NCBI GenBank assembly: GCA_035601235.1
Contig: DATNOR010000186.1
Location: 279-64,278 of the forward strand
Reading direction: 5' to 3'
Length of the DNA: 64,000 nt
Source of the DNA: Gemmatimonadales bacterium
Lineage (GTDB): Bacteria > Gemmatimonadota > Gemmatimonadetes > Gemmatimonadales > GWC2-71-9
The translations under genes and the position numbers were made by a program. The notes under the pieces were generated by a model that was given only the letters and a program-made list of their open reading frames with translations, ran no database searches and was not told the DNA's origin. Of the stretch, positions 2,819 to 58,771 are shown piece after piece. Positions within the stretch are counted from its first letter, which is position 1. Each line of letters opens with the position of its first letter.

Positions 2819-5092
2819 ATGCACACGATCGCCCGCGCGCTCGTTGCGTCCGCCCTCGGCGCGCTGCTCCTCGCCGCCGCTCCTTCCCCCACCGCCGACC
2901 TGCGCGGCTACTCCACCGACGCGGCGAAGGCCGAGCGGGACTGGGAGGCCAAGCTCCGCGCTGTCCCGTCGCCCGACTCGTTGCGCGAGTACATGCGCCG
3001 CCTCTCGGCGCGGCCGCACCACGTCGGCTCGCCGTACGACAAGGACAACGCCGAGTGGATCCTCGCCAAGTTCAAGGGCTTCGGGTTGGACGCGCGGATC
3101 GAGACGTTCGACGTGCTGTTCCCCACGCCCAAGGAGCGCGTCGTGGAGCTGGTGGCACCCACGAAGTTCGTCGCCAAGCTGCAGGAGCCCCCGGTCGTGG
3201 GCGACCCCACCTCGAGTCAGCAGGCGGAGCAGCTGCCGACCTACAACGCCTACTCGATCGACGGCGACGTCACCGCCCCGCTGGTGTACGTGAATTACGG
3301 CGTGCCGGCGGATTATGAGCAGCTCGAGCGCATGGGCATCTCCGTCAAGGGCGCCATCGTGATCGCGCGCTATTTCGGATCGTGGCGCGGCATCAAGCCC
3401 AAGGTGGCGGCCGAGCACGGGGCCGTGGGCTGCATCATCTACTCCGATCCGCGGGAGGATGGGTACGCCCATGGCGAGGTGTACCCGCAGGGTCCGTGGC
3501 GGCCCAAGGACGGCGTGCAGCGCGGCAGCGTGATGGACATGCCGCTCTATCCCGGCGATCCGCTCACCCCCGGGATCGGGGCGACCAAGGACGCCAAGCG
3601 CCTGGCGGTGAGTGAAGCCCCCACGATCACCAAGATTCCCGTGCTGCCGATTTCCTACGGCGACGCGCAGCCGCTGCTGGCGGCGCTGCGCGGTCGCGTG
3701 GCGCCGGCCGAGTGGCGCGGCGCCCTCGGCATCACCTACCGCCTCGGTCCCGGGCCCGCCCGCGTGCATCTGCGGGTCAAGTCCGACTGGAATCTCAAGC
3801 CCCTGTACGACGTGATCGCGCGCATCCCAGGCGCGGTCGCGCCGGACGAGTGGGTGGTCCGCGGCAATCATCACGACGCCTGGGTGAACGGCGCGGAAGA
3901 TCCGATCTCGGGACTGGTGCCGCTGCTGGAAGAGGCGCGCGCCTACGGGCAGCTCCTCAAGCAGGGCTGGAAGCCGCGCCGCACCATCATCTACGCCGCC
4001 TGGGACGGCGAGGAGCCGGCGTTGCTCGGCTCGACCGAGTGGGTCGAGGCCCATGCCGACGAGCTGGCCGCCAAGGCCGTCGCGTACCTGAACAGCGACA
4101 CCAACAACCGCGGGTACCTGAACATCGGCGGCTCGCACTCGCTCGAGAATTTCATCAACGACGTGGCGCGCGATATCGAAGATCCCGAAACCAAGCTCAC
4201 CGTATGGAAGCGGGCCCAGCTCCGTGCCATTGCCGACGCGACCTCCGCGGACGCCCGCCAGGAAGCGCGCCAGCGTGCCGACCTGCGCATCGACGCCCTC
4301 GGGTCCGGGTCGGATTTCACGCCGTTCCTGCAGCACGTCGGCGTCGCCACGTTGAACCTCGGCTACGGCGGGGAGGGCGGCGGCGGGATCTATCATTCGA
4401 TCTACGATGACTTCAAGTGGTTCACCACCTTCGACGACACGTCGTTCGTGTACGGGCGCGCCCTGGCCCAGACCGTGGGCACCGCGGTGTTGCGCCTGGC
4501 CGACGCCGAAGTCCTGCCCTATCAATTCACCGGGCTGGCCGAGACGGTGGCGAAGTACACCAAAGAGGTGGAGAAGCTCGCGAAGGACAAGCAGGACGAG
4601 ATCCGCGAGCGGACCCGCGAGCTCGACGAGGGCCTGTTCACGGCCACCGCCGATCCGCGCGAGCCCGACGTGCCCCCGGCGCGCGAGGCGCTGCCGCCGT
4701 TTCTCAACTTCGCGCCGCTCGACAACGCGACCGACGCGCTGACACGCGTGGCCGAGCGCTACGAGAAAGCCCTGGGGCGCGCTCAGGCCAACGGCGGCGC
4801 GGCGCTGGCCAAGCCGGACGTGCAGGCCGTGAACGCCACCCTGCTCCGCTCGGAACGGGCGCTGACGACCGCAGCCGGACTGCCGCGCCGGCCGTGGTAT
4901 CGTCACGCGGTCTATGCGCCAGGCTTCTACACGGGCTACGGCGTGAAAACACTTCCAGGCGTGCGCGAGGCGATCGAGCAGAAAAACTGGTCCGAGGGCG
5001 ACGCGCAAATCGAAGCCGCCGGCAAGGCGCTCCAGGCCACCGCTGACGTGATCGGGCGTGCGGCCGAGCAGCTGGAGAAGGCGGCGCCGTGA
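2819..5092 (+). CDS. M28-family peptidase, glutamate carboxypeptidase II / NAALADase-like (PA domain plus TfR-like dimerisation domain)
   Basis: 757-aa ORF with signal peptide MHTIARALVASALGALLLAAA. Stretches typical of the family: GAIVIARYFGSWRGIKP, RGNHHDAWVNGAEDP, AAWDGEEPALLGSTEW, YHSIYDDF. Confidence 0.8.
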   Translation: MHTIARALVASALGALLLAAAPSPTADLRGYSTDAAKAERDWEAKLRAVPSPDSLREYMRRLSARPHHVGSPYDKDNAEWILAKFKGFGLDARIETFDVLFPTPKERVVELVAPTKFVAKLQEPPVVGDPTSSQQAEQLPTYNAYSIDGDVTAPLVYVNYGVPADYEQLERMGISVKGAIVIARYFGSWRGIKPKVAAEHGAVGCIIYSDPREDGYAHGEVYPQGPWRPKDGVQRGSVMDMPLYPGDPLTPGIGATKDAKRLAVSEAPTITKIPVLPISYGDAQPLLAALRGRVAPAEWRGALGITYRLGPGPARVHLRVKSDWNLKPLYDVIARIPGAVAPDEWVVRGNHHDAWVNGAEDPISGLVPLLEEARAYGQLLKQGWKPRRTIIYAAWDGEEPALLGSTEWVEAHADELAAKAVAYLNSDTNNRGYLNIGGSHSLENFINDVARDIEDPETKLTVWKRAQLRAIADATSADARQEARQRADLRIDALGSGSDFTPFLQHVGVATLNLGYGGEGGGGIYHSIYDDFKWFTTFDDTSFVYGRALAQTVGTAVLRLADAEVLPYQFTGLAETVAKYTKEVEKLAKDKQDEIRERTRELDEGLFTATADPREPDVPPAREALPPFLNFAPLDNATDALTRVAERYEKALGRAQANGGAALAKPDVQAVNATLLRSERALTTAAGLPRRPWYRHAVYAPGFYTGYGVKTLPGVREAIEQKNWSEGDAQIEAAGKALQATADVIGRAAEQLEKAAP

Positions 5093-6700: not shown

Positions 6701-6716
6701 TGTGATTAGCATCACT
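6701..6716. promoter_or_regulatory. CRP-type palindrome TGTGA-ttagca-TCACt upstream of the ABC transporter operon
   Basis: 9 of 10 match to TGTGA-N6-TCACA, read directly. The centre is 36 nt upstream of ATG 6745. It overlaps a possible TTGATG(6683)-N18-TAGCAT(6707) promoter. Confidence 0.45.
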
Positions 6717-6744: not shown

Positions 6745-7707
6745 ATGCCTCTCCTCTCAGTCGAAGGCGTTTCCAAGCGGTTCGACGGCGTGACGGCCGT
6801 CGACCAGGTCTCGTTCGCCGTGGACCGCGGTCAGGTGGTGGGATTCCTTGGCCCGAACGGGGCCGGGAAATCCACGACCATGCGGATGATCACCCAGTAC
6901 TACGAGCCGGACACGGGTGGCATCAAGCTCGACGGCGTACCGCTCGCCGACGTGGGGCGCCAGGCGAAGCGCCGCATCGGCTACCTCGCTGAGAACAATC
7001 CATTGTATGGCGACATGCTGGTGTGCGATTACCTGGGCTTCATCGCCGACCTGCGGGAGCTCGCCGGTGTCGGGCGCCGCCAAGCGCTCGACGAGGCGGT
7101 CACCGGCACGGGCATCGAGACGGTGTACTACCGGCCCATCGGCGAGTTGTCGAAGGGGTACCGCCAGCGGGTGGGCCTCGCGCAAGCGATCCTGCACCGC
7201 CCCGATCTGCTGGTCCTGGACGAGCCCACCGAAGGGCTCGACCCCAACCAGCGCCTGGAGATCCGCAGGCTGATCGGCGCGCTCGGCAAGGACCGCACCG
7301 TGATCCTGTCGACGCACGTGCTCCCGGAGGTGCAGCACACCTGCTCGCGCCTGCTCATCATCAGCCGCGGTAAGATCGTGGCCGACGGACCCGTGGAGCG
7401 GCTCATCCAGCAGGCGGAAGGGGCGGTCGAGATCGCCGTCGAGGCCGCCGGCACGGGCGTCGCGGAAGCGCTGGGCCAGCTCCCCGGGGTGCGCCGGGTG
7501 AGTCCGGCAGGCCCGGCCACGAATGGCCGAGTGGCGGTGACGCTCACCGCCGATCGCTCCACCGACCTGCGGCCCGAGATCTTCGGACTCGCCAAGGCCC
7601 GCGGCTGGACGCTGTACGAGCTGCATCAGGCGGCCGGCCGCCTCGAGGACCTGTTCCACCAGCTCACGAGTCAGCCACCTGACGAGTCAGGCGGAGCGGT
7701 GACGTGA
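6745..7707 (+). CDS. ABC transporter ATP-binding protein (GldA-like, ABC-2 type)
   Basis: Walker A GPNGAGKST, signature LSKGYRQR, Walker B LLVLDEPTEGLD. Confidence 0.9.
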   Translation: MPLLSVEGVSKRFDGVTAVDQVSFAVDRGQVVGFLGPNGAGKSTTMRMITQYYEPDTGGIKLDGVPLADVGRQAKRRIGYLAENNPLYGDMLVCDYLGFIADLRELAGVGRRQALDEAVTGTGIETVYYRPIGELSKGYRQRVGLAQAILHRPDLLVLDEPTEGLDPNQRLEIRRLIGALGKDRTVILSTHVLPEVQHTCSRLLIISRGKIVADGPVERLIQQAEGAVEIAVEAAGTGVAEALGQLPGVRRVSPAGPATNGRVAVTLTADRSTDLRPEIFGLAKARGWTLYELHQAAGRLEDLFHQLTSQPPDESGGAVT

Positions 7708-13231: not shown

Positions 13232-14335
13232 ATGCTGCGTCTCGGCATAGTCGGTCTTCCCAACGTCGGTAAGTCGACGCTCTTCAACGCGCTCACCTCG
13301 TCCAGGGCCGCGGCGGCGGAGAACTATCCGTTTTGCACCGTCGAGCCCAACGTCGGGGTGGTCGAAGTCCCCGACCCGCGGCTGGAGCAGCTGAACGCGC
13401 TCGTCAAGCCCAAAAAGAAGGTCCCCGCGGTGGTCGAGTTCGTGGACATCGCCGGGCTCGTCCGAGGCGCGTCCCAGGGCGAGGGCCTGGGCAATCAGTT
13501 CCTGTCCCACATCCGCGAGGTGGACGCCGTCGTCCATGTGATCCGCTGCTTCGACGATCCCGACGTGGTGCACGTGATGGGCCCGGTGGATCCGGTGCGC
13601 GACCACGACGTGATCACCAGCGAGCTGGCCCTGGCCGATCTCGCGGTGGTGGAGCGGCGGCTCGACAAGACCCGCAAGACCGCGCGGGCGGGTGACAAGG
13701 AGGCGCAGGCGGAGCTGGCGGTGCTCGAGCGCGTGATGGCGGAGCTGAACGCAGGTCGGGGCGCGCGCGAGGCCGGCGAGAGCGAGGAGGCCGTCCGCTT
13801 CCTGCGACAGCTCGGCCTGCTCACGGCGAAGCCGATCCTGTACGCGGCCAACGTCAACGAGCCGGACCTGGCCGCGGGCGGCGGACCCTGGCTCGACAAG
13901 CTGCGCGCCGCGGTCCAGGCGCACCACGAAGAAGCGGAGATCGTGCTGTTCTCCGCCAAGCTCGAGGCCGAGCTGGGCGAGCTGGCGGGGGACGAGCGGC
14001 GTGAGTATCTCGCGAGCGCCGGCGTGACGGAGCCGGGGCTCGACCGCCTGATTCACGCCGGGTACCGGTTGCTCGGACTGCAGACGTTCTTCACGGTGGG
14101 CGAGAACGAAGTCCGCGCCTGGACCATGCATCGGGGCGACACCGCGTTCGCGGCCGCGGGAGAGATCCACTCCGATTTCCAGCGCGGTTTCATCCGGGCC
14201 GAGACCGTGGCGTTCGCGGACTTCGTGCGGGCGGGGTCCTACAAGGCGGCCCGGGAGCAGGGCCTGGTGCGCAGCGAGGGCCGGGATTACGTGGTCAAAG
14301 ACGGCGACATCCTGCTGTTCCGGTTCAACGTGTAG
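13232..14335 (+). CDS. ychF: redox-regulated ATPase YchF
   Basis: [17 protein letters not shown]-loop and C-terminal [11 protein letters not shown], typical of YchF/OLA1. Confidence 0.95.
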
Positions 14336-14354
14336 GGAACGAGCGGGGAAAACG

Positions 14355-15632
14355 TCAGCAGATGAACCCGCGAATCGCGAGCATCGGCCCCGTATCAGGC
14401 CGCCGCCACCGAATCCAACCCTCCGCCGTACGCTGCGGCGCGGTCCCGCACCATTCGCCCGGCCAATGCACGCGCACCCTCATCCAGTCTCCGTCGATCT
14501 CGAGGGGAGCGACGCTGTACTCGGGCACGGTGCCGACCCTCCCTTCGAGCCACGCGAGCACGGCGCTGGTGTCGTCACGCGCGCCGCGCAGCGGATGTCG
14601 CCCGAGCTCCCGGAAGTACGTCGGCACGTCCTGATGCAGAAAGTGGTCCTCCCACCGTGTGACCGCCAACAGGATGTCTCCCAGCGCAAGGTATGAGCGG
14701 TGCGTCCAAACGGTTCCGTCGTCGTCCGGCGTCGGGGGCGCGTAACGGAACCGGAGCCATCCGTCGTCACGCAGCACCAGGACCGGAAGGGCGGTGCCCT
14801 CGGACGACGTGCCGATCCACCCGCCGACCGTCCATTCGCCCCAGCTCCAGCGCGGCGCGCCCCGCCGCGCCATCCACCCACGCGCCAGCCACCCCGCGAC
14901 GGGCGTGTCCGGTCCGTCGTACACGGGCACGATCACGTTGCCGAGCCATTCAAAGCCGCTGAAATTGTTGACACCATCCGCGCCGGGCGCGAGGTATCCT
15001 ACGCCGAGTGTGGAATCCCGGAAGGACCGATCAACGCTCGGCGCGCGAGGGAGCGGGCGCGGCGGCGGCGGCGCGGTCAAACTGTCGGGGAAGCGGGCGA
15101 GCGAGCCCCACGGGTCGAGCGACGCGCGGCAGCGTTCGAGGATACGGGCGGCCTGGAGAGAGGGATCGTCGAGCTGCGGCGCGTGAAACACGGTTGCCGC
15201 ATCGGCGGCGGCGGTCTGGGCCGGTAGATCGGGGATGTCGTTCTCCACCGAGCCCCGGCCCGCGTCGAAGTCGACCAGAATGATCGTGCGGCCGGCCGTG
15301 TAGCCGTACCGGTCCTCGTAATAGCGCCGTACCACACCGGCGCTGTCCGTGGCGACTTGAATCGTCCAGAACCGACGGTTTTCACCGTCACGCCGCCACA
15401 CGACCGCCCGATACCCGCGTGCGCTCCAATAGAAATCCTCGCGGCACCGCCCCCCGGTATCGACATCAGCGCGCACCCGGGGTCGAAACTCCGACAGCGC
15501 GAGCGCAGCAGGGGAAAGGCCCGGGAGGGCGATCCTATCTTGGATGACGCTGTGCCCGGGCTCCCTGCTCGGTCCGCGACAGGCGCCGAGCAGAAACGCC
15601 GGCACGGTGAGTCGGGCGAGCAGCCGTCGCAT
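14355..15632 (-). CDS. hypothetical lipoprotein (425 aa), third gene of the sigma-54 unit
   Basis: Internal ATG 15632 gives MRRLLARLTVPAFLLGAC (lipobox) and overlaps the upstream stop by 1 nt (TGATG). Trp-rich C-terminal half. No family recognised. Confidence 0.55.
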   Translation of the reverse strand: MRRLLARLTVPAFLLGACRGPSREPGHSVIQDRIALPGLSPAALALSEFRPRVRADVDTGGRCREDFYWSARGYRAVVWRRDGENRRFWTIQVATDSAGVVRRYYEDRYGYTAGRTIILVDFDAGRGSVENDIPDLPAQTAAADAATVFHAPQLDDPSLQAARILERCRASLDPWGSLARFPDSLTAPPPPRPLPRAPSVDRSFRDSTLGVGYLAPGADGVNNFSGFEWLGNVIVPVYDGPDTPVAGWLARGWMARRGAPRWSWGEWTVGGWIGTSSEGTALPVLVLRDDGWLRFRYAPPTPDDDGTVWTHRSYLALGDILLAVTRWEDHFLHQDVPTYFRELGRHPLRGARDDTSAVLAWLEGRVGTVPEYSVAPLEIDGDWMRVRVHWPGEWCGTAPQRTAEGWIRWRRPDTGPMLAIRGFIC

Positions 15633-16363
15633 CAGTACCGGCTCCACAACAGCACGGCCCCACAGCCCCCGCCGAAGCCGGTCTGGAACTCGATGGGCAC
15701 GTCGAACCCGCGCTTGTACACCTCGACCCCGGCGAGCTCGTCGACCCGTATCGTCTCGAGGAAATCGGCCGGCAGCTGCATCCCGTCGAGGAACAGCGTG
15801 AGGACGCAGCGCCGCCACAGCTCTCCACCGATGGGCAGGCAGGGTCCGATGCCGCACCGGACTTGCACCCCCGATTCACTCATCAGGCTCCGGAGCGAAA
15901 GCCCGCTGCGGCGCTCGAGGTCGGCCAACGTGTAGAACCGGCCGAAGCGCCACTTCTTGCGGTCGTAGAACCCGGCCAGGCTGCGGTCGGCGCGCCAGCT
16001 GCGTGCCTCGACCACGATCGGGCTCAACTCCACCGCGTCGACGTCGAGCAGCACCGACAGCGCCAGTGTCTTGCCGCGCTTCAGCGTGACCTCGCTGTCG
16101 TACGACAGGCTGTCGCGGTAGAGGATGCGGAGCGTCTGCCGTCCGGGCGGCAGGCCGGCAAGGGCGAAAACCCCGGCGCTATCGCTCACGCCGAACGCAC
16201 GGGCCCCGCGCACGGCGACCATTACGCCGGGGATGGGGAGGCCATTGGTGGACGACCGCGCCGTGCCCACGATCCGGGCGGTCGTGTCGCGCTGGGCCTG
16301 CCCCGGCAAACGGGACGCGCCCACGCACAGGATGAGCAGGCTGCTCAGTGCAGCGGGCTTCAC
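15632..16363 (-). CDS. secreted CarboxypepD_reg-like domain plus TonB-receptor plug-like domain, no beta-barrel
   Basis: Signal peptide MKPAALSSLLILCVGASRLPGQAQ. ARIVGTA...GLPIPGVMVAV resembles the N-terminus of SusC-type receptors. It ends ...CGAVLLWSRY at 243 aa, which is too short for a barrel. Confidence 0.55.
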   Translation of the reverse strand: MKPAALSSLLILCVGASRLPGQAQRDTTARIVGTARSSTNGLPIPGVMVAVRGARAFGVSDSAGVFALAGLPPGRQTLRILYRDSLSYDSEVTLKRGKTLALSVLLDVDAVELSPIVVEARSWRADRSLAGFYDRKKWRFGRFYTLADLERRSGLSLRSLMSESGVQVRCGIGPCLPIGGELWRRCVLTLFLDGMQLPADFLETIRVDELAGVEVYKRGFDVPIEFQTGFGGGCGAVLLWSRY

Positions 16364-16390
16364 ACACCGGAATCTACTGCGGGAAGCGGC

Positions 16391-16999
16391 TTACGGCGCG
16401 CTGGAACCGCCCTGGAGGGGGTTGCCCCGCTGGAGCCGCGGCGCGACCTGTTGCGGGTCCGGCTCGATCAGCCGCACCTGCTGTTGGGCCATGTCGCGGC
16501 TGATCCAGACCACGCGGTCACCGCACATGATGGCGTCCACCGGATAGGGCTGGCGGCCGAACGACTGGGCATCCGACGTGGCCACCTGCGTGCCCGGGAA
16601 GAAGTACCAGCAGCGCTCGCCACTGGGGTGACTGTGAATCACCCCCACGGTCCCCGTCCAGCCGGCGTCTTCACACGTCTGTTTCGGCACGACGCGCGTC
16701 TCCGTGGACTGCTTCGGATCCACGTCGGCGGGCGCGATGCGATGCACGATCACGGCGTTCCCGTGCATCTCACCGATCATGCAGCCCATGAACTCGGTCG
16801 GAAAGGACCGATACTGCAGCATCAAGTAGCGGCGCGCCTGCTCGGACAGCACCAGCGCCCGCGCGTGCGAAACCCGCGTCGCCGCAACGGCGCTGAAGCG
16901 CGCAGGCTCCGGCTGCAGCGCCAACAGGGTGATCAACCCTGCTGCCGCCCCGACGGCGCGTGTGGCGCGCGCGCGAAGCCAGAGACCCGCTGCTTGCAT
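16391..16999 (-). CDS. membrane-anchored or secreted JAB/MPN-like protein (putative metallopeptidase fold)
   Basis: The CDS is well supported. The function call rests on EFMGCMIGE ... GVIHSHPSGE ... TSDAQSF, which resembles the JAMM E / HxH / S..D layout but has non-canonical spacing. N-terminal hydrophobic segment. Confidence 0.45.
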   Translation of the reverse strand: MQAAGLWLRARATRAVGAAAGLITLLALQPEPARFSAVAATRVSHARALVLSEQARRYLMLQYRSFPTEFMGCMIGEMHGNAVIVHRIAPADVDPKQSTETRVVPKQTCEDAGWTGTVGVIHSHPSGERCWYFFPGTQVATSDAQSFGRQPYPVDAIMCGDRVVWISRDMAQQQVRLIEPDPQQVAPRLQRGNPLQGGSSAP

Positions 17000-17035
17000 G
17001 CGTCGCTTCCTGGTGCGTGTTCGTCATCGTAGTAA

Positions 17036-17052
17036 AGCAAGAGCGGTGCCAA
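17036..17052 (-). promoter_or_regulatory. sigma-54 (-24/-12) promoter
   Basis: The minus strand reads TTGGCACcgctcTTGCTt, an exact TGGCAC-N5-TTGC. The -12 GC is 38 nt upstream of ATG 16999. Confidence 0.6.
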
Positions 17053-17120
17053 TTCGCGCTCAACACCGCGCCCCGTCGCAACTCCTTATCGAAAGGATGA
17101 TTGAGCGGGGCGTCGCGTAT

Positions 17121-17136
17121 CGTGATGGTCGTCACA
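17121..17136. promoter_or_regulatory. palindrome cGTGA-tggtcg-TCACa (UAS/CRP-type box)
   Basis: 9 of 10 match to TGTGA-N6-TCACA. About 100 nt upstream of the predicted sigma-54 start and 180 nt upstream of rpsF. Confidence 0.45.
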
Positions 17137-17181
17137 CCGTGTCGCCGCGGCCTCAAAAACCCCGCATTGCGCGACGGCATA

Positions 17182-17197
17182 CGTGAGCGACATCACG
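17182..17197. promoter_or_regulatory. palindrome cGTGA-gcgaca-TCACg (UAS/CRP-type box)
   Basis: Same GTGA-N6-TCAC core. Its centre is 61 bp from the 17121 box. Confidence 0.4.
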
Positions 17198-17308
17198 CGC
17201 GCGACGCGCCCTTCCACACCCGGCGCCGCGGTTCTATCTTTCCGCCTGTTGCGATCCCTACTCGGCGCGGCACCTGCGTCGGGTCGCCTATGACCAAAGG
17301 GAGGTGGC

Positions 17309-17677
17309 ATGGCTCGTCGCTACGAGACCGTCTACATCTTCGATCCCGCACTGGAAGAGCCCGCGATCAGCGAAAAGCTGGAGCGGTTTCACGCCCTCCT
17401 CACCAAAGACGCTAAGGGCACCATTACCAACGTCGCGCAGTGGGGCAAGCGTTCCCTCGCGTTCCCCATCAAGAAGAAAGACTCCGGCTACTATGTGGTC
17501 GCACAGTACGAGACCGCGGGGGCGCTGCTCCCCGAGTACGAGCGGGCCGTGAAGCTCGACGAGGGCGTGCTGCGGTTCCTCGTGGTCGTGTCCGAAGGCC
17601 TGCCGGCCAAGCCCGCGGCCGCTCCCGCGGTCATCGCGGCCGACGTCGTGGACGAGATCGAGGAGGACGACGCATGA
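17309..17677 (+). CDS. rpsF: 30S ribosomal protein S6
   Basis: [13 protein letters not shown]... is a typical S6 N-terminus. Strong SD AGGGAGGTGG upstream. Acidic C-terminal tail. Confidence 0.95.
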
Positions 17678-17895
17678 GACGGCCCGCCAAGACGTGTCCC
17701 GTGTGCGAGTCCGGGGTGCGGGTGCTCGACTACAAGGACGACCGCACGCTCGGCCGCTTCCTGACCGAGCGCGGCAAGATTCTCCCCAGCCGGCTGTCGG
17801 GCATGTGCGCGCGGCACCAGCGCCAGCTCGCCACCGCGATCAAGCGCGCGCGCCAACTGGCGCTGCTGCCCTACATCAAGGGATACGTCGGCTGA
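17674..17895 (+). CDS. rpsR: 30S ribosomal protein S18
   Basis: ATGA overlap with rpsF. [25 protein letters not shown] and [18 protein letters not shown]. Confidence 0.95.
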
Positions 17896-17897
17896 CG

Positions 17898-18428
17898 GTG
17901 GGGCGCTGGCTCGGCCTCGTGGCGCTGTCGTTCGCCGCGCTGCGGCTGGCGGCGCGACCGGGATCGCGGGCCCAGTGGCTCGTGCTGGCCGGCGCCGCCG
18001 GAGCCGGCGTGGCGCTGCTGCTCGGGCCCGCGGCCGGATTGCTGGGCGCCCTGGACCGGGCCTGGATCGTGCTGGTGTCGGTAGCGTTCGCCGCCGGCGT
18101 CGCCGCACGCCCGGCCGGCGCGCGCTTCTGGCCGCTCGCGCTGCGGGCGTGTCTCTACACGGCGGCCGGTGTGGCGATCCTCGGGCCGCTCACCGTGGGA
18201 CCGTCGGTGTGGCAGGAAGCCCACTGGGAGGCGACGCGCGACGCGAGCGGCGCCATGCGGCGCGTGATCGAGGTCGCCCCGGGCCTGTACCCGGCGTTCG
18301 AGCCCACGGTGCGGCTGCTCGCGGCCGGCTGGCCCGTGTGGCTCGTGCTCGAGACGCTCGTCGCACTCGCGCTCGCCTGGCGGGCCACGCGGGCGTTGGC
18401 GCGCACGCCGCTCGCCGCCCCGGCGTGA
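17898..18428 (+). CDS. hypothetical polytopic membrane protein between rpsR and rplI
   Basis: In-frame GTG 17898, 2 nt after the rpsR stop. Ala/Leu-rich with several hydrophobic spans. G/C-rich third codon positions. Confidence 0.5.
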   Translation: MGRWLGLVALSFAALRLAARPGSRAQWLVLAGAAGAGVALLLGPAAGLLGALDRAWIVLVSVAFAAGVAARPAGARFWPLALRACLYTAAGVAILGPLTVGPSVWQEAHWEATRDASGAMRRVIEVAPGLYPAFEPTVRLLAAGWPVWLVLETLVALALAWRATRALARTPLAAPA

Positions 18429-18466
18429 ACCTTTTCCGCGTAATTCTTTCTTAAGGAACGCGAACC

Positions 18467-18910
18467 ATGGAAGTGATTCTGCGTGAAGCCGTGCAGCACC
18501 TGGGCACCGCGGGCGACGTCGTGAAGGTCAAGGACGGCTACGCCCGCAACTACCTGCTGCCGAAGGGACTCGCCTACCCGGCCACCGAGGCGAACAAGAA
18601 GAAGATCGCGTACGAGGCGGAGCGGATCGCGCGGCAGCGCGCCGACGAGAAGAGCGCCGCCGAGACCGAGGCCACGCGCATCGCCGAGGTCCGGCTCAGC
18701 TTCGCCGTCAAGGTCGGCGAGGAGGACAAGCTGTACGGCTCGGTCACGGCGGGCGACGTGCAGCGCAAGCTCGAGGAGCTCGGGATCAAGGTGGACAAGC
18801 GCAAGGTCGATCTCCCCGAGCCGATCCGCGAGCTGGGCGAGTTCCGCGTCGGCATCAAGCTGCACCCCGACGTGCGTCCCGAAATCCAGGTGACGGTAGT
18901 CAAGGAATAG
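18467..18910 (+). CDS. rplI: 50S ribosomal protein L9
   Basis: MEVILREAVQHLGTAGDVVKVKDGYARNYLLPKGLA is the canonical L9 N-terminus. Confidence 0.95.
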   Translation: MEVILREAVQHLGTAGDVVKVKDGYARNYLLPKGLAYPATEANKKKIAYEAERIARQRADEKSAAETEATRIAEVRLSFAVKVGEEDKLYGSVTAGDVQRKLEELGIKVDKRKVDLPEPIRELGEFRVGIKLHPDVRPEIQVTVVKE

Positions 18911-19006
18911 CCGCCCGCTCAACGTCCGGACGAGGATGGCCATACTACTGATATGCGGGCGCGGGATGCTCACGGGCGGACGGAACAAACACGCGCTCGG
19001 GGCGCT

Positions 19007-37173: not shown

Positions 37174-37339
37174 AGCACACGATCCTTGACTGGAAGTCGA
37201 ACGGCACGAAGTGTGGAAATATAACTGGCGCCACAAGTTGGCGGCAAGCGCCGGGCGACGCGCCGAATTGACAGCGGCTAGGCTTGTACGTAAGCTTGCC
37301 CGACCATTTCACCCCTCCACGCGTAAGGGGAAGCCTATC

Positions 37340-38011
37340 GTGTCGGTAACGGCCATCCTCCAGAAGGTGCCGCTGTTCAGCCAGTTGGCCACCACGGAGC
37401 TCGACCGGGTGGCCGAGATCACCCGCGAGCGCAGTTACCCCCGCAACTCCGTGATCCTGTTCGAAGACGACCCAGGGGACGCCCTGTACGTCGTGGCCAC
37501 CGGTCAGGTGAAGGTGGTGCTGATCGGCGAAGACGGGCGCGAGGTCATTCTGTCGGTCTTGGGGGAGGGCGACTTCTTCGGCGAGATGTCGCTCATCGAC
37601 GAGGAGCCCCGCTCGGCGCACGTGATCGCGATGGAGGACTCCAACCTCCTGGTGATCCGGCGCGAGGACTTTCAGGCCATCCTGCAGCAGTCGCCGGGCA
37701 TCGCGATGGGGCTGTTGCGCGAGCTGTCGCGCCGCCTGCGGCGCGTGGACGAGAAGGTCGGATCGCTGGTGCTGCTCGACGTGAACGGGCGCGTGGCGCA
37801 GCTGCTGCTCGATCTCGCCGACGAGGCTCGCTCCGACCGCATCACGCGCCGACTCACCCACCACACCATCGCGCAGATGATCGGGTCCTCCCGCGAGACG
37901 GTGAGCCGCACCATGCGCGAGCTGGTGGACAAGGGCTTCATCGAAATCAGCCGTCGCGAGATCCTGATTCGCGACCGCGCCGCGCTGGAAGCCTCAGCCG
38001 GACGGTCGTGA
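37340..38011 (+). CDS. Crp/Fnr-family transcriptional regulator with a cNMP-binding domain
   Basis: GTG 37340 follows AAGGGGA. GEGDFFGEMSLID...RSAHVIA (cNMP pocket). HTH IAQMIGSSRETVSRTMRELV keeps the R-E-x-x-x-R residues of E. coli CRP. Confidence 0.88.
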   Translation: MSVTAILQKVPLFSQLATTELDRVAEITRERSYPRNSVILFEDDPGDALYVVATGQVKVVLIGEDGREVILSVLGEGDFFGEMSLIDEEPRSAHVIAMEDSNLLVIRREDFQAILQQSPGIAMGLLRELSRRLRRVDEKVGSLVLLDVNGRVAQLLLDLADEARSDRITRRLTHHTIAQMIGSSRETVSRTMRELVDKGFIEISRREILIRDRAALEASAGRS

Positions 38012-38045
38012 GGTGCATCACCTCGTCGTGAGGTGCATCACCTCC
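38006..38045. promoter_or_regulatory. two tandem 20-bp repeats, each carrying cGTGA-ggtgca-TCACc
   Basis: TCGTGAGGTGCATCACCTC occurs twice (38006-38024, 38026-38044), and the first copy overlaps the crp-family stop codon. The box centres lie 41.5 and 61.5 nt upstream of the start implied by a TAACTT -10 at 38064-38069. Confidence 0.5.
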
Positions 38046-38097
38046 TAGCTCTCGAATTTTCCATAACTTAGCGACAGGTGCGGCGGTGCCGGGACGC

Positions 38098-38985
38098 ATG
38101 GCCTACACGGTGACCTTCTGGGGAACGCGAGGGTCGATCCCGACCCCTGGGGCCCACACCGCTCGCTACGGCGGCAACACGCCCTGCGTCGCGGTGGAGG
38201 GCACGGGGGGCGGGAGAGGCGACGGCCACGGCCAGCTGGTAATCCTCGACGCCGGCACGGGGATCCGACCGCTGGGGCGCGAGCTGGTGGAGCACCAGAA
38301 CGGCGCGGTGCAGGCGGAGATCCTGCTGTCGCACGCGCACTGGGACCACATCCAGGGTCTCCCGCACTTCAAGCCGTTTTTCGCCCCGGGGAACGCGGTA
38401 CGCATCTGGGGCTCGCGCCAGGGCACGACCTCGCTCGAGGCGATCCTGCGCCAGCAGATGGACCCGGCAGTGTTTCCGGTACCGCTCGATGCGCTGTCGG
38501 CGAAGCTCACGGTCCAGCAGGTCGAGCCGGGGGAGTTCACGGTCGGCTCGTTCCGTGTCCAGGCCATACGGCTGCGCCATCCGGGCACGACGCTCGGCTA
38601 CCGCCTGACCCCGGCCGCAGGGGGCCCGAGCATGGCCTACATCACGGACAACGAGCTGGGCGCGGGGGGCCGCTACAGCACGCCCGCGTCGTGGCGCAAG
38701 GAGTTCGTGGCCTTTCTCGATGGGGTACACCTGTTGATTCACGACGCCATGTACACCCCCGAGGAGCTGGAAGAGCATCGCGGCTGGGGCCATTCGACGT
38801 TCGAAGAAGCGGTCGCCCTGGCCGGCGAAGCGGGGGTGCAGCGCTTGGCCCTGTTCCACCACGAGCCGGAGCACGGCGACGAGGCCATCGATGCGCTGGT
38901 CGCCGCGGCCCGCCGCCAGGCCCGGGTGAAGGGGCTGCCGGCCGAGGTGGTGGCGGCTCAGGAAGGGATGACGTTGACCCTCTGA
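38098..38985 (+). CDS. MBL-fold metallo-hydrolase
   Basis: MAYTVTFWGTRGSIPTPG, LLSHAHWDHIQGLPHF (HxHxDH), HDAMYT, LALFHHEPEH. Confidence 0.8.
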   Translation: MAYTVTFWGTRGSIPTPGAHTARYGGNTPCVAVEGTGGGRGDGHGQLVILDAGTGIRPLGRELVEHQNGAVQAEILLSHAHWDHIQGLPHFKPFFAPGNAVRIWGSRQGTTSLEAILRQQMDPAVFPVPLDALSAKLTVQQVEPGEFTVGSFRVQAIRLRHPGTTLGYRLTPAAGGPSMAYITDNELGAGGRYSTPASWRKEFVAFLDGVHLLIHDAMYTPEELEEHRGWGHSTFEEAVALAGEAGVQRLALFHHEPEHGDEAIDALVAAARRQARVKGLPAEVVAAQEGMTLTL

Positions 38986-55287: not shown

Positions 55288-55303
55288 CGTGAGGGGCGTC
55301 ACC
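55288..55303. promoter_or_regulatory. palindrome cGTGA-ggggcg-TCACc
   Basis: GTGA-N6-TCAC core read directly. It sits in the 66-nt gap between the aldehyde dehydrogenase stop and the small ORF / lepB unit (minus strand). Confidence 0.35.
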
Positions 55304-56868: not shown

Positions 56869-57377
56869 CAGCGCTTCGGCGCCAACGTAGGCGGTGACAC
56901 GTCGGGGCAGAGCCAGAGCGCGGCCGCGTGGCTGCCGACGCGCGGCAGGACTTCCCGTGTCATCAGGAGGATGCCCCAGACGATGAGGCCCTGCGCGATC
57001 ACATGGGCGAAGCCGAGGCGTCGTTTCCAGGACGAGAGGCTGGCCCACACGCCCGCGGCCACCACGGTGGTCACGCCCAGGAGATAGAAGATCAGCCGCA
57101 ACCCGCAGCCGTGCGAATACGGCCAGACGCCGGGGGCGACCCCGATGCCGACGAGCACGCCGAGCGCCACCTTGGCCCACGTGCCGAGTCGCCCGGAGCC
57201 GCTCGGGGGTGCGACGCCGCCGCGCGGCGTCACCGTGGAGAGCGACGGCTTTTTGGCGGTCGGCTCGTAGCCAGCCCGGCGGCCCAGCGTCGGGTCCGCG
57301 TCGGGGAGCTTCTTGAGCAGCCGGTCGACCTCGGCCATCTCTTTGTCCCAGTCCCGCTCTTTATCGCTTCCCGCCAC
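56868..57377 (-). CDS. hypothetical membrane protein (charged N-terminus plus 3-4 TM segments)
   Basis: The GTG start overlaps the activator stop by 1 nt. Hydrophobic spans VALGVLVGIGVA, LIFYLLGVTTVVAAGVWA, GLIVWGILLM. Confidence 0.5.
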   Translation of the reverse strand: MAGSDKERDWDKEMAEVDRLLKKLPDADPTLGRRAGYEPTAKKPSLSTVTPRGGVAPPSGSGRLGTWAKVALGVLVGIGVAPGVWPYSHGCGLRLIFYLLGVTTVVAAGVWASLSSWKRRLGFAHVIAQGLIVWGILLMTREVLPRVGSHAAALWLCPDVSPPTLAPKR

Positions 57378-58771
57378 TACGCCCCCCCGTCCCGCGCCAG
57401 CCGGTAGCGCTCGATCTTCTTGTAGAGATTACTGCGCGGCATATCCAATGTGCGCGCCGTCTCCGACACATTCCAGTCGTTTTCCTGCAGCTTGGCGAGG
57501 ATGTAGGTCCGCTCCGCCACCTGCTTGAACTCCTCGAACGTCGCCGCCCGCATCCACGGCGCCGCGGACACGTCGACGGGCCCCGTCCCCCGTCCCCCGT
57601 CCCCCGTCCCGACGCCCGCGATCCGCTCCACATCCGATACGGTGACCGTCGGACCGGGGGCGAGAATGAGGAGGCGCTCGACGGCATTGCGCAGCTCGCG
57701 GATGTTGCCGGGCCAGTCGTACGCGGCGAGCCGTTTCAGGGCGTCGGGGTCGACGCCCTTGGCCTGGAGCCCGCCGCGCTCGGTCAAGCGAGCGGTGAAG
57801 TGCTCGACCAGCTGCGGCACGTCGGCCCGGCGGGCGCGCAGCGGCGGCACCTCGATCGGCACGACGTTGAGCCGGTAGAGCAGATCCTCCCGGAACCGAC
57901 CCGCGGCGATTTCGGCGCGCAGATCCTTGTTGGTGGCAGCGACGACCCGCACGTCCACCGCCAGCGTCTTGCCCGACCCCACGCGGGAGATGACGGCCTC
58001 CTCCAGCGCGCGCAGCACCTTGGCCTGGGCCGAGAGGCTCATGTCGCCGACCTCGTCGAGGAACAGCGTTCCTCCATCGGCCAGCTCGAACTTGCCGGCG
58101 CGGTCGGCGAATGCGCCGGTGAAGCTGCCCTTCATGTGCCCGAACAGCTCGCTCTCGATCAGCTCCGTCGGGATCGCCGCGCAGTTCACCTCCACGAACG
58201 GCTGGTCGGCGCGGGGGGAGAGCGTATGGATGGCGCGGGCGACGAGCTCCTTGCCGGTGCCGTTTTCGCCGGTGATGAGGACGCGCGCCGCGGTCGGCGC
58301 CACCTTCTCGATGCGCTCGATCACACCCTTCACGGCCCGGCTCGAGCCCACGATCTCGTACTGGGCGTGCACCTCGGCTTTGAGCCGCACGTTCTCGCTG
58401 GCGAGGTCCACGTGCTCGAGGGCGTTGCGCAGCGTGAGGAGGATGCGGTCCGTGTCGAGCGGCTTCTCGAGGAAGTCGTAGGCGCCGAGCTGGGTCGCTT
58501 CGACGGCGGTCTGGATGGTGCCGTGGCCCGAAATCATCACGACCTGCGCGCGCGAGTCGAGCTCGCGCAGCTTGCGCAGCGTCTCGAGGCCGTCCATGCC
58601 CTGCATCTTCACGTCGAGCAACACGAGGTGGGGCCGGAACTCGGGGTAGAGGCTCAGCGCCTCGGCGCCGGAGACGCACGCCCGCACGTCGATGTCCTCG
58701 TACTCGAGCAGCTGGGTCAGGGCTTCACGGATGCCCTTCTCGTCGTCCACGACCAGGACCCGCCGGCTCAC
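57377..58771 (-). CDS. sigma-54-dependent response regulator (REC - AAA+ - Fis-type HTH)
   Basis: VLVVDDE...LLDVKM receiver. GENGTGKE Walker A. GAFTGA-like GSFTGA. ESELFGH. C-terminal ARTLDMPRSNLYKKI HTH. Confidence 0.92.
   Translation of the reverse strand: MSRRVLVVDDEKGIREALTQLLEYEDIDVRACVSGAEALSLYPEFRPHLVLLDVKMQGMDGLETLRKLRELDSRAQVVMISGHGTIQTAVEATQLGAYDFLEKPLDTDRILLTLRNALEHVDLASENVRLKAEVHAQYEIVGSSRAVKGVIERIEKVAPTAARVLITGENGTGKELVARAIHTLSPRADQPFVEVNCAAIPTELIESELFGHMKGSFTGAFADRAGKFELADGGTLFLDEVGDMSLSAQAKVLRALEEAVISRVGSGKTLAVDVRVVAATNKDLRAEIAAGRFREDLLYRLNVVPIEVPPLRARRADVPQLVEHFTARLTERGGLQAKGVDPDALKRLAAYDWPGNIRELRNAVERLLILAPGPTVTVSDVERIAGVGTGDGGRGTGPVDVSAAPWMRAATFEEFKQVAERTYILAKLQENDWNVSETARTLDMPRSNLYKKIERYRLARDGGA
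57581..57608. repeat. four perfect CCCCGTC heptamers inside the activator gene
   Basis: Read directly. The coding strand is (GACGGGG)4, encoding GVGTGDGGRGTGPV in the linker between the AAA+ and HTH domains. Same unit as the hyuA hairpin arms. Confidence 0.85.

Follow-up and report, generated by a model that had tools for sequence, protein, structure and literature searches.

In the 64,000-nucleotide (nt) stretch of contig DATNOR010000186.1 of a Gemmatimonadales bacterium analysed here, called the window, a sigma-54-like promoter motif and two palindromes lie upstream of g1, a minus-strand gene for a JAMM/MPN+ protein. The locus raises the question of which regulators act on this region and which genes they serve. 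An earlier note on this DNA took the palindromes for activator sites that loop to the -24/-12 element and drive a dedicated secreted three-gene system, g1-g2-g3. The reading preferred here, which is judged moderately probable, is that a CRP-dependent promoter (P1) is stacked upstream of a sigma-54 promoter (P2) before a lineage-specific JAMM gene. The unit would then be g1 with its composite regulatory region and not a three-gene system.

A scan of species-representative genomes for g1 gave 67 loci, of which 35 are syntenic, with g1 between rpsF and ychF, and 32 are paralogous. There are 2-4 copies of g1 per genome, and the paralogues are found in other contexts. The loci fetched from relatives, about 700 kb in total, are labelled with L-numbers (L001, L010 etc.). 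Conservation of the promoter and of the palindromes (boxes) was counted over 32 close syntenic loci, and the geometry of a CATCCT-containing block downstream of the boxes over 36 genome loci. A metagenome set of 80 g1-linked regions was obtained by a search with the pattern box-N20-ATCATCCTT, and 49 metagenome contigs reaching from g1 to ychF were used for gene co-occurrence.

The sigma-54 promoter of g1 and its paralogues

On the minus strand TTGGCACCGCTCTTGCTT at 17052..17035 contains the core TGGCAC-N5-TTGC (17051..17037), an exact match with its GG and GC dinucleotides one turn apart. The exact motif had been reported before, with its end placed at 17036 instead of 17035; the coordinates of the earlier note were correct to within one base. 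Read on the minus strand, the GC of the -12 element lies 38 nt ahead of the ATG at 16999, as previously stated, and this ATG is preceded by GGAAG. The core is the sole exact match in the window, with 0.06 expected from dinucleotide shuffles; with one mismatch there is no enrichment (1 site against 3.47 expected). The evidence from the window alone is modest, and it is the conservation of the motif, not the window statistics, that makes the support for a sigma-54 promoter strong.

TGGCAY-N5-TTGC is found ahead of g1 in 29 of the 32 syntenic loci, 40-110 nt from the start codon, and variation in the hexamer is limited to a change from C to T at position 6. The same motif precedes at least 13 of the 32 g1 paralogues, where the flanks are otherwise unrelated, and is present in 69 of the 80 metagenome loci. 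The GG and GC dinucleotides, the 15-nt register and the orientation are constant across orthologues and paralogues. With a weight matrix built from 40 orthologous and paralogous sites the window site scored 27.9 bits and all other window sites at most 12 bits, and all 41 matches of 17 bits or more in the fetched loci sit upstream of g1-type genes. Since the -24/-12 element is kept in position and orientation before orthologues and paralogues alike, TGGCAC-N5-TTGC is very probably a true sigma-54 promoter, as had been proposed.

Sigma-54 promoters require an AAA+ enhancer-binding protein. The sigma-54 activator gene pointed out earlier was found in the window, and its predicted product, with a GSFTGA loop, suggests that the organism uses sigma-54. 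It was rejected as the activator of P2, being generic NtrX/NtrC/AtoC-like and encoded 40 kb away, with no link found. A second upstream sigma-54 element (GG-N10-GC in GGGTAACGAGTTGC) was also rejected; it occurs in only some loci and is absent from the window. Literature searches on sigma-54 in Gemmatimonadetes or with JAB proteins found no earlier description.

Other features were observed at the paralogues. In L048 (1023-5507) a gene for a PAS-GAF sigma-54 activator (845 amino acids, GAFTGA loop) lies two genes upstream of the g1 paralogue and a Ser/Thr kinase gene follows the paralogue; no sigma-54 motif was detected directly ahead of it. A paralogue subfamily comprising L033, L034, L035, L037, L039 and L045 has a conserved region about 170 nt upstream of its sigma-54 promoters. 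This region contains GAATC-N14-GATTC, and TTCGCACCACTATT just before the -24 element, and may be where a dedicated activator binds; a gene for a conserved zinc-ribbon protein of 118 amino acids is located about 280 nt downstream of these paralogues. In another paralogue subfamily (L043, about 4760-4905; L036; L058) the sigma-54 promoter is immediately preceded by short tandem repeats of the CGACCTCCAC / CAACCTCCA type, and repeats and promoter are located downstream of a gene for a PKD-domain protein.

The paired boxes and a candidate upstream promoter

Both palindromes described in the earlier note match GTGA-N6-TCAC exactly (Table 1), and their centres lie approximately 103.5 and 164.5 nt upstream of the predicted P2 start, in agreement with the distances given there. 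They are dyad-symmetric and fall within 80-200 nt upstream of this start. The proximal box is kept in all 32 syntenic genome loci (32/32) and both boxes are found in 31. The two boxes are mostly 40-43 or 60-65 nt apart, corresponding to roughly 4 or 6 helical turns. The distance from the start of the proximal box to the -24 element forms two classes in the 80 metagenome regions, 56-59 nt in 38 regions and 84-88 nt in 31, with no -24 element in the last 11. The offset of 28-29 nt between the two classes does not correspond to complete helical turns.

The boxes are located in the intergenic region shared with rpsF. Depending on the locus they are between 102 and 607 nt away from the rpsF ATG, with a whole open reading frame (ORF) in between in L006 and L008. 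Where the only gene in the gap between rpsF and ychF is g3-like (L069, L070), or the gap contains two g2-like genes and an EAL gene (L071), the boxes and the sigma-54 motif are absent and the rpsF leader with TATNTT is kept. Because the distance to rpsF varies and the loci lacking g1 have no boxes, the boxes and the sigma-54 promoter can be said, from this comparison, to belong to g1 and to travel with it, not with rpsF.

The boxes are also kept where the sigma-54 element is lost. In L010 and L014 both boxes and the adjoining block AATCATCCTT remain, the -24/-12 element is gone, and the ATG follows 31-56 nt on behind a Shine-Dalgarno sequence. The more distant orthologues L041 and L052 have one box with CTAATTCC at the same offset and no sigma-54 motif, and 11 of the 80 g1-linked metagenome regions keep the box without the motif. 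The sigma-54 promoters of the g1 paralogues have no boxes, and the palindrome occurs elsewhere in the window without a sigma-54 motif. Retention in the absence of a sigma-54 element argues against activator sites, which need a sigma-54 promoter, and the boxes are probably not the enhancer-binding-protein sites that they had been taken for.

GTGA-N6-TCAC is the core of the CRP consensus TGTGA-N6-TCACA. There are seven copies of it in the window, six of them intergenic, with 0.68 expected, and 87 copies in the fetched loci compared with 5.3 in shuffles, most of which are the g1 sites themselves. A scan with the sigma-54 matrix gave no motif near the other boxes of the window. The recognition helix of a CRP-family protein encoded in the window (37211..38011) is SRETVSRTMRE, in which RETVSR is of the R-E-x-x-x-R type; these residues read GTGA in E. 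coli CRP. The best NCBIfam model for the protein is that of E. coli CRP (5e-39). The boxes are probably sites of a CRP-family regulator, and the product of this gene is the candidate. Two identical tandem boxes GTGAGGTGCATCAC, 20 nt apart (38008-38021 and 38028-38041), directly follow the gene, the latter having TAACTT at the class II offset in the same geometry as the proximal box of g1 and CATCCT.

The proximal box is found 22 nt before a conserved CATCCT in the AATCATCCTT block, which corresponds to the class II (-41.5) geometry of CRP. C-A-T occupies positions 36-38 from the start of the box in 26-30 of the 36 genome loci, which were not selected for the block. CATCCT retains the A at position 2 and the T at position 6, a weak match to a -10 element, and in the loci without the sigma-54 motif the block is kept together with the short leader and Shine-Dalgarno sequence. 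Because the offset between box and CATCCT is rigid and the offset between box and sigma-54 element falls in two non-helical classes, we infer that a box-dependent promoter, P1, lies upstream of P2, with CATCCT as its putative -10 element.

According to the proposed mechanism g1, a Gemmatimonadales-specific zinc (iso)peptidase of the JAMM/MPN+ type with an N-terminal hydrophobic anchor, would be driven by the two stacked promoters. The boxes would bind a cyclic-nucleotide-binding regulator of the CRP family, probably the product of 37211..38011. P1 would be a weak activator-dependent promoter of the housekeeping sigma factor, starting near 17087 with the proximal box near -41.5, and the distal box, 4 or 6 helical turns further upstream, would complete a class III-like tandem arrangement. 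P2 would be a canonical sigma-54 promoter at 17051..17037, starting near 17025 and activated by an AAA+ enhancer-binding protein. In this way g1 would integrate a cyclic-nucleotide signal with a sigma-54/activator signal, and the bound CRP-type protein could also modulate P2 through DNA bending. The transcript would probably continue through g2 and g3, interchangeable cargo between g1 and ychF.

Several points weigh against the stacked promoters. CATCCT is a poor -10 element, and a simple sigma-70 scan of 16950-17350, with a consensus that may not be that of Gemmatimonadales, found no promoter. The starts near 17087 and 17025 are both predicted from sequence alone. The rigid box spacing in the metagenome set is partly a matter of construction, the regions having been selected via the box-N20 pattern. 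The candidate regulator scores 133.9 bits, below the equivalog cut-off of 266 of the E. coli CRP model, and further CRP/FNR paralogues may be present elsewhere in the genome. Measured from P2, the boxes sit at about -75 or -104 and at about -140 or -165, where activator sites are typically found as well, and an RpoN box was not found in the window or in the fetched loci. TTGAYGC repeats between the boxes and a second block, YAA-SGAS-TTG, point to further regulators.

Four other explanations were weighed. The one in the earlier note, in which activators at the palindromes loop to the -24/-12 element of the three-gene system, would account for paired, dyad-symmetric boxes at a spacing typical of activators, about 100 and 160 nt ahead of the predicted sigma-54 start, for a distance to the -24 element that is held to two classes and for the presence of a sigma-54 activator gene in the window. 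It is distinctly unlikely, however, as loci that have lost the sigma-54 motif still keep the boxes and the adjoining block, the paralogues share the promoter but have a different conserved upstream region in place of the boxes, the same palindrome is found at four other intergenic sites of the window without a sigma-54 motif, and the trio is limited to the window's own lineage. Not very probable, either, is that the boxes are of CRP type and P1 does not exist, so that the regulator acts only on the sigma-54 promoter by bending the DNA, either in place of IHF, helping an activator to the closed complex, or by blocking it, as CRP does at E. coli glnAp2. Direct action of CRP on a sigma-54 promoter via bending has been published (PMC1865078), and boxes of CRP type, two separate spacing classes and the poor quality of CATCCT as a -10 element would all fit, but the loci that lack the sigma-54 motif and keep boxes and CATCCT ahead of a short leader are left unaccounted for, and the difference between the classes is not a matter of whole turns, whereas the offset between box and CATCCT is rigid.

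It is very unlikely that the boxes regulate the divergent rpsF-rpsR-rplI operon and are close to g1 only incidentally. They do lie in the shared intergenic region, the distal one about 40 nt ahead of a -10-like TATCTT that is conserved at 17235-17240, but this reading is contradicted by the variable distance to rpsF, by the full ORF in between in two loci and by the genomes without g1, which keep the rpsF leader and have no boxes. The least likely explanation, to be given hardly any weight, is that TGGCAC-N5-TTGC is a chance match or a site for another factor and not a promoter. The lack of one-mismatch enrichment and of a visible rpoN in the window agree with it, but not the dinucleotides and register conserved across orthologues and paralogues with differing flanks, nor the constant orientation and the start-codon distance of 40-110 nt.

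The second block between the boxes and P2, TAAGGAGTTG, is restricted to the long-spacing class; all 23 long-class regions that were aligned have its TTG unchanged. The inverted repeat that spans both blocks has a minimum free energy of -15.1 kcal/mol (z = -2.9) and 0 consensus pairs across 23 orthologous regions; the hairpin noted earlier is present in the window but lacks support as a conserved bending-protein site. For an IHF site in AATCATCCTT or TAAGGAGTTG only partial matches to WATCAANNNNTTR were seen by eye, and none was convincing. A sigma-70 promoter using a conserved TTGACG just upstream of the proximal box was rejected, the spacer to any TAnnnT being 20-21 nt. Between the boxes (17136-17182) most orthologues have direct repeats, GAAATGCC ... 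TTGATGCC ... TTGACG with a spacing of 11-13 nt, which are degenerate in the window and could be the site of a winged-helix response regulator. On the plus strand about 75 nt upstream of rpsF (17235-17308) are conserved even in genomes without g1. This sequence contains TATCTTTC / TATTTTCC / TATGTTTC, which resemble the Bacteroidota -7 motif TAnnTTTG, and may hint at the housekeeping promoter type of Gemmatimonadales.

The tandem boxes behind the CRP-family gene are followed by a gene for an MBL-fold hydrolase (38086..38985) that is weakly similar to a cyclic-nucleotide phosphodiesterase (NF041851, 1.5e-11), and the region 37211-38985 could be a cyclic-nucleotide feedback loop. Another intergenic box (6702-6715) is located 30 nt ahead of an ABC-transporter operon that starts at 6745 with ABC_tran followed by ABC_transp_aux, and one more (55289-55302) has an aldehyde dehydrogenase gene on one side and a small ORF/signal peptidase on the other, beside a GC-rich hairpin. 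These last two boxes do not have the -41.5 geometry.

The three genes and the variable gap

The three minus-strand genes are backed by the ORF listing and by codon-position GC. They are flanked on the left by L25-pth-ychF and on the right by rpsF-rpsR-rplI, both on the plus strand. The overlap of 1 nt between g2 and g3 (TGATG) is as described in the earlier note, and the gap between g1 and g2 is 27 nt, not 28. A scan of the intergenic junctions between g1, g2 and g3 found no promoter-like or terminator-like signal above chance. Given the short gap, the overlap and the lack of internal signals, the three genes are likely to be co-transcribed in the window from the g1 promoters. When 14000-19000 was scanned with Rfam at E up to 1, there was no match, including no riboswitch or rpsF-leader family.

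Table 1. Positions of the genes and regulatory features in the window.
Feature	Position	Strand	Description
g1	16391..16999	minus	202-amino-acid JAMM/MPN+ (Prok-JAB) protein; conserved core gene of the module
g2	15632..16363	minus	243-amino-acid secreted CarboxypepD_reg protein; frequent, optional partner of g1
g3	14355..15632	minus	425-amino-acid Trp-rich lipoprotein, near-orphan family; lineage-specific operon addition
Sigma-54 -24/-12 core TGGCACCGCTCTTGC (P2)	17037..17051	minus	predicted start about 17025
Conserved block TAAGGAGTTG	17079..17088	minus	consensus YAA-SGAS-TTG; about 30 nt upstream of the -24 element
Conserved block AATCATCCTT	17093..17102	minus	contains CATCCT (17099..17094), putative -10 of P1, predicted start about 17087
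Inverted repeat, 7+5 bp	17069..17112	minus	lineage-specific; spans the AATCATCCTT and TAAGGAGTTG blocks
Proximal CRP-type box GTGACGACCATCAC	17122..17135 (minus reading 17135..17122)		centre about -103.5 from P2 and about -41.5 from putative P1
Distal CRP-type box GTGATGTCGCTCAC	17183..17196 (minus reading 17196..17183)		61 nt upstream of the proximal box
CRP-family regulator gene	37211..38011	plus	candidate box binder; cNMP_binding and HTH_Crp_2 domains
Sigma-54 activator gene	57377..58771	minus	NtrC/NtrX/AtoC-like, response-regulator type; loop motif GSFTGA

The secreted trio does not hold as a system. In the 35 syntenic genome loci g2 is found with g1 in 19 and g3 in two, and in the 49 metagenome contigs g1 and g2 occur as a pair in 34, g1 occurs without g2 or g3 in 13 and the trio is present in two. 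Including the trio, 36 of the 49 contigs have the g1-g2 pair, and the share of loci in which g1 has g2 beside it is about 55-75%. The two contigs with the trio share at least 95% identity with the window. The trio is confined to the window, L004, L075 and L162, where g1 is 90-98% identical to that of the window, while in the closest genome, L001 (g1 94% and rpsF 99% identical), g1 and g2 are followed by ychF and there is no g3. The g2-like and g3-like genes are also found in the gap without g1, as in the loci lacking boxes and sigma-54 motif described above. Judged by gene content, the three genes are not a conserved system and the gap between g1 and ychF takes up variable cargo. Further occupants are a pair of genes for a SAMP-like and a BNR-repeat protein and a gene for a peptidase of family M2. 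The latter, full-length and of the angiotensin-converting-enzyme family (Pfam E 4e-223), directly follows g1 in L031 (3339-5189) and L032 (5672-7522), and in L032 a distant g3 homologue lies beyond it.

The assignment of g1 as JAB-like was borne out. The Pfam family Prok-JAB matches with 26.7 bits, the cut-off being 25, and the AlphaFold2 model (pLDDT 64, moderate confidence) has as its top Foldseek matches Rpn11, PfJAMM1 bound to SAMP2 and CSN5, with E about 1e-5 and probability 1.0. According to the model g1 has the JAMM fold. In the family alignment E69, H122-S-H124, S142-D143 and four Cys are invariant. The Ser and Asp are adjacent and located 18-19 residues past the second His, compared with HxH-x7-S-x2-D in the canonical motif, in a loop with pLDDT below 50. 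The 935 homologues all come from soil sources of Gemmatimonadales type, the named ones as Mov34/MPN/PAD-1, and the family is narrow, with 176 clusters at 50% identity among 1.84 billion representatives. The N-terminus consists of an Arg-rich tail, a hydrophobic helix of 14 Ala, Gly and Leu residues and an invariant LALQPEPA. The helix could be a signal anchor, and its flanking charges leave the topology both ways. The order Arg cluster, helix and Q-P-E-P-A in residues 1-33 (window 16910-16999) is the reverse of that in a PEP-CTERM sorting signal, with PEP first and the Arg cluster last, which may be coincidental.

In L010, L017, L022, a degraded L006 and five metagenome contigs g1 is followed by a gene for a protein of 89 amino acids ending in SGG and then by one for the BNR-repeat protein. 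The short protein matches SAMP1 at 4.9e-11, and also ThiS/MoaD, and neither it nor the BNR protein has a signal peptide. The 89-amino-acid gene overlaps by 4 nt a gene for a BNR/Sortilin-Vps10-like protein of 373 amino acids (L010 5672-7059; also in L017, L022, L006, L135 and L142). No E1-like gene was found near g1 and the SAMP-like gene, and the ubiquitin-like neighbour is missing in most genomes, including the window. Neighbourhoods of genes for JAB and ubiquitin-like proteins are a documented theme (PMC1779556). Since this pairing is known and the SAMP-like neighbour is present in some genomes, there are hints, by analogy, that g1 cleaves after Gly-Gly, and its catalytic domain may face the cytoplasm. 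A search with PADLOC gave no anti-phage match for g1, g2, g3, the ubiquitin-like protein or the BNR protein.

A wider proposal, considered improbable, is that g1 represents an anchored JAMM family with 2-4 paralogues per genome, each behind a near-identical sigma-54 promoter and acting on a SAMP/MoaD-like Gly-Gly protein, with the copy between rpsF and ychF also under cyclic-nucleotide control of CRP type. If this were true it would be a bacterial ubiquitin-like deconjugation or maturation step under sigma-54 control, and neither the regulon nor the membrane-associated enzyme would have a described counterpart.

In g2 a signal peptide and a transthyretin-like CarboxypepD_reg domain are followed by a C-terminal alpha/beta domain that folds confidently (model pLDDT 83). 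The 259 homologues are all about 241 amino acids long, and the CarboxypepD_reg domain without a barrel, as reported in the earlier note, is a property of the whole family. The N-terminus is collinear with that of SusC/RagA-type receptors up to the start of the plug. The claim that the C-terminus is plug-like gained nothing significant from four tests: Pfam Plug matches 3 of 63 members with a best E of 0.037, a profile search of the PDB gave no match, hhalign against an approximate BtuB plug sequence was collinear with a probability of 1.4%, and the top 50 Foldseek matches of the model cover the N-terminal domain only. A TonB plug was rejected in the absence of significant similarity in sequence, profile or these top 50 structural matches.

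The g3 protein contains 20 Trp (4.7%) and an LLGAC lipobox, with MRRLLARLTVPAFLLGAC read directly from the sequence, and has no Pfam or NCBIfam match, in agreement with the description as a Trp-rich lipoprotein without recognisable domain. Only 28 homologues were found among 5.8 billion proteins.

Relation to known systems and significance

The nearest precedent is in E. coli, where CRP activates the sigma-70 promoter glnAp1 ahead of the sigma-54 promoter glnAp2, glnHp1p2 is built in a similar way, and CRP also affects the sigma-54 promoter at glnA and glnH by DNA bending (PMC1865078). The likeness consists of a weak upstream CRP-dependent sigma-70 promoter followed by a sigma-54 promoter before one gene, an arrangement that is here predicted from motifs and their spacing. 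Here, in a different phylum, the target is a JAMM peptidase and not nitrogen assimilation, a pair of boxes in helical phase is present, of which the proximal one is at the class II position, and the predicted distance between the starts of P1 and P2 is about 35 or 63 nt as compared with 115 bp at glnA. Class II and III promoters of CRP/GlxR type share with the g1 region the core of the palindrome, the R-E-x-x-x-R helix in a regulator that has cNMP-binding and HTH_Crp_2 domains, and a site about 41.5 nt upstream of the start, which at P1 is a predicted one, with a second site whole turns upstream. The flanking T and A of the full CRP consensus are mostly absent here, and binding is a prediction.

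With the JAB/JAMM-SAMP systems (archaeal JAMM1-SAMP, PdtG-PdtH) g1 shares the JAMM fold, the E...HxH...D motif and the structural match to PfJAMM1-SAMP2, as well as being followed by the SAMP1/MoaD-like SGG protein in four genomes and five metagenome contigs. It differs in its N-terminal hydrophobic anchor, in an insertion of 8 residues between HxH and the Ser-Asp pair, in the lack of an adjacent E1-like gene and, in most genomes, of a ubiquitin-like neighbour. Sigma-54 control of such genes was not found described in literature searches. As for g2, the signal peptide, the CarboxypepD_reg domain and an IVVEA-type segment are collinear with SusC/RagA-type TonB-dependent transporters, but none of the 259 members has a beta-barrel and the C-terminal domain is not significantly Plug-like.

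The regulatory design is already known, and what would be added here is a new instance with an uncharacterised enzyme family attached. The secreted trio is removed from consideration as unsupported. A conserved palindrome at activator distance from a sigma-54 promoter is not necessarily an activator site, and the two regulatory modules appear to be separable, since the sigma-54 element has been naturally lost in some loci. For Gemmatimonadota, an abundant soil phylum with almost no experimental transcription data, the locus offers a sigma-54 promoter with good support and a candidate motif of a CRP-type regulon. The lineage-restricted JAMM family, consistently driven by sigma-54 promoters as predicted here and sometimes paired with a SAMP-like protein, would be an entry point to ubiquitin-like chemistry in these bacteria.

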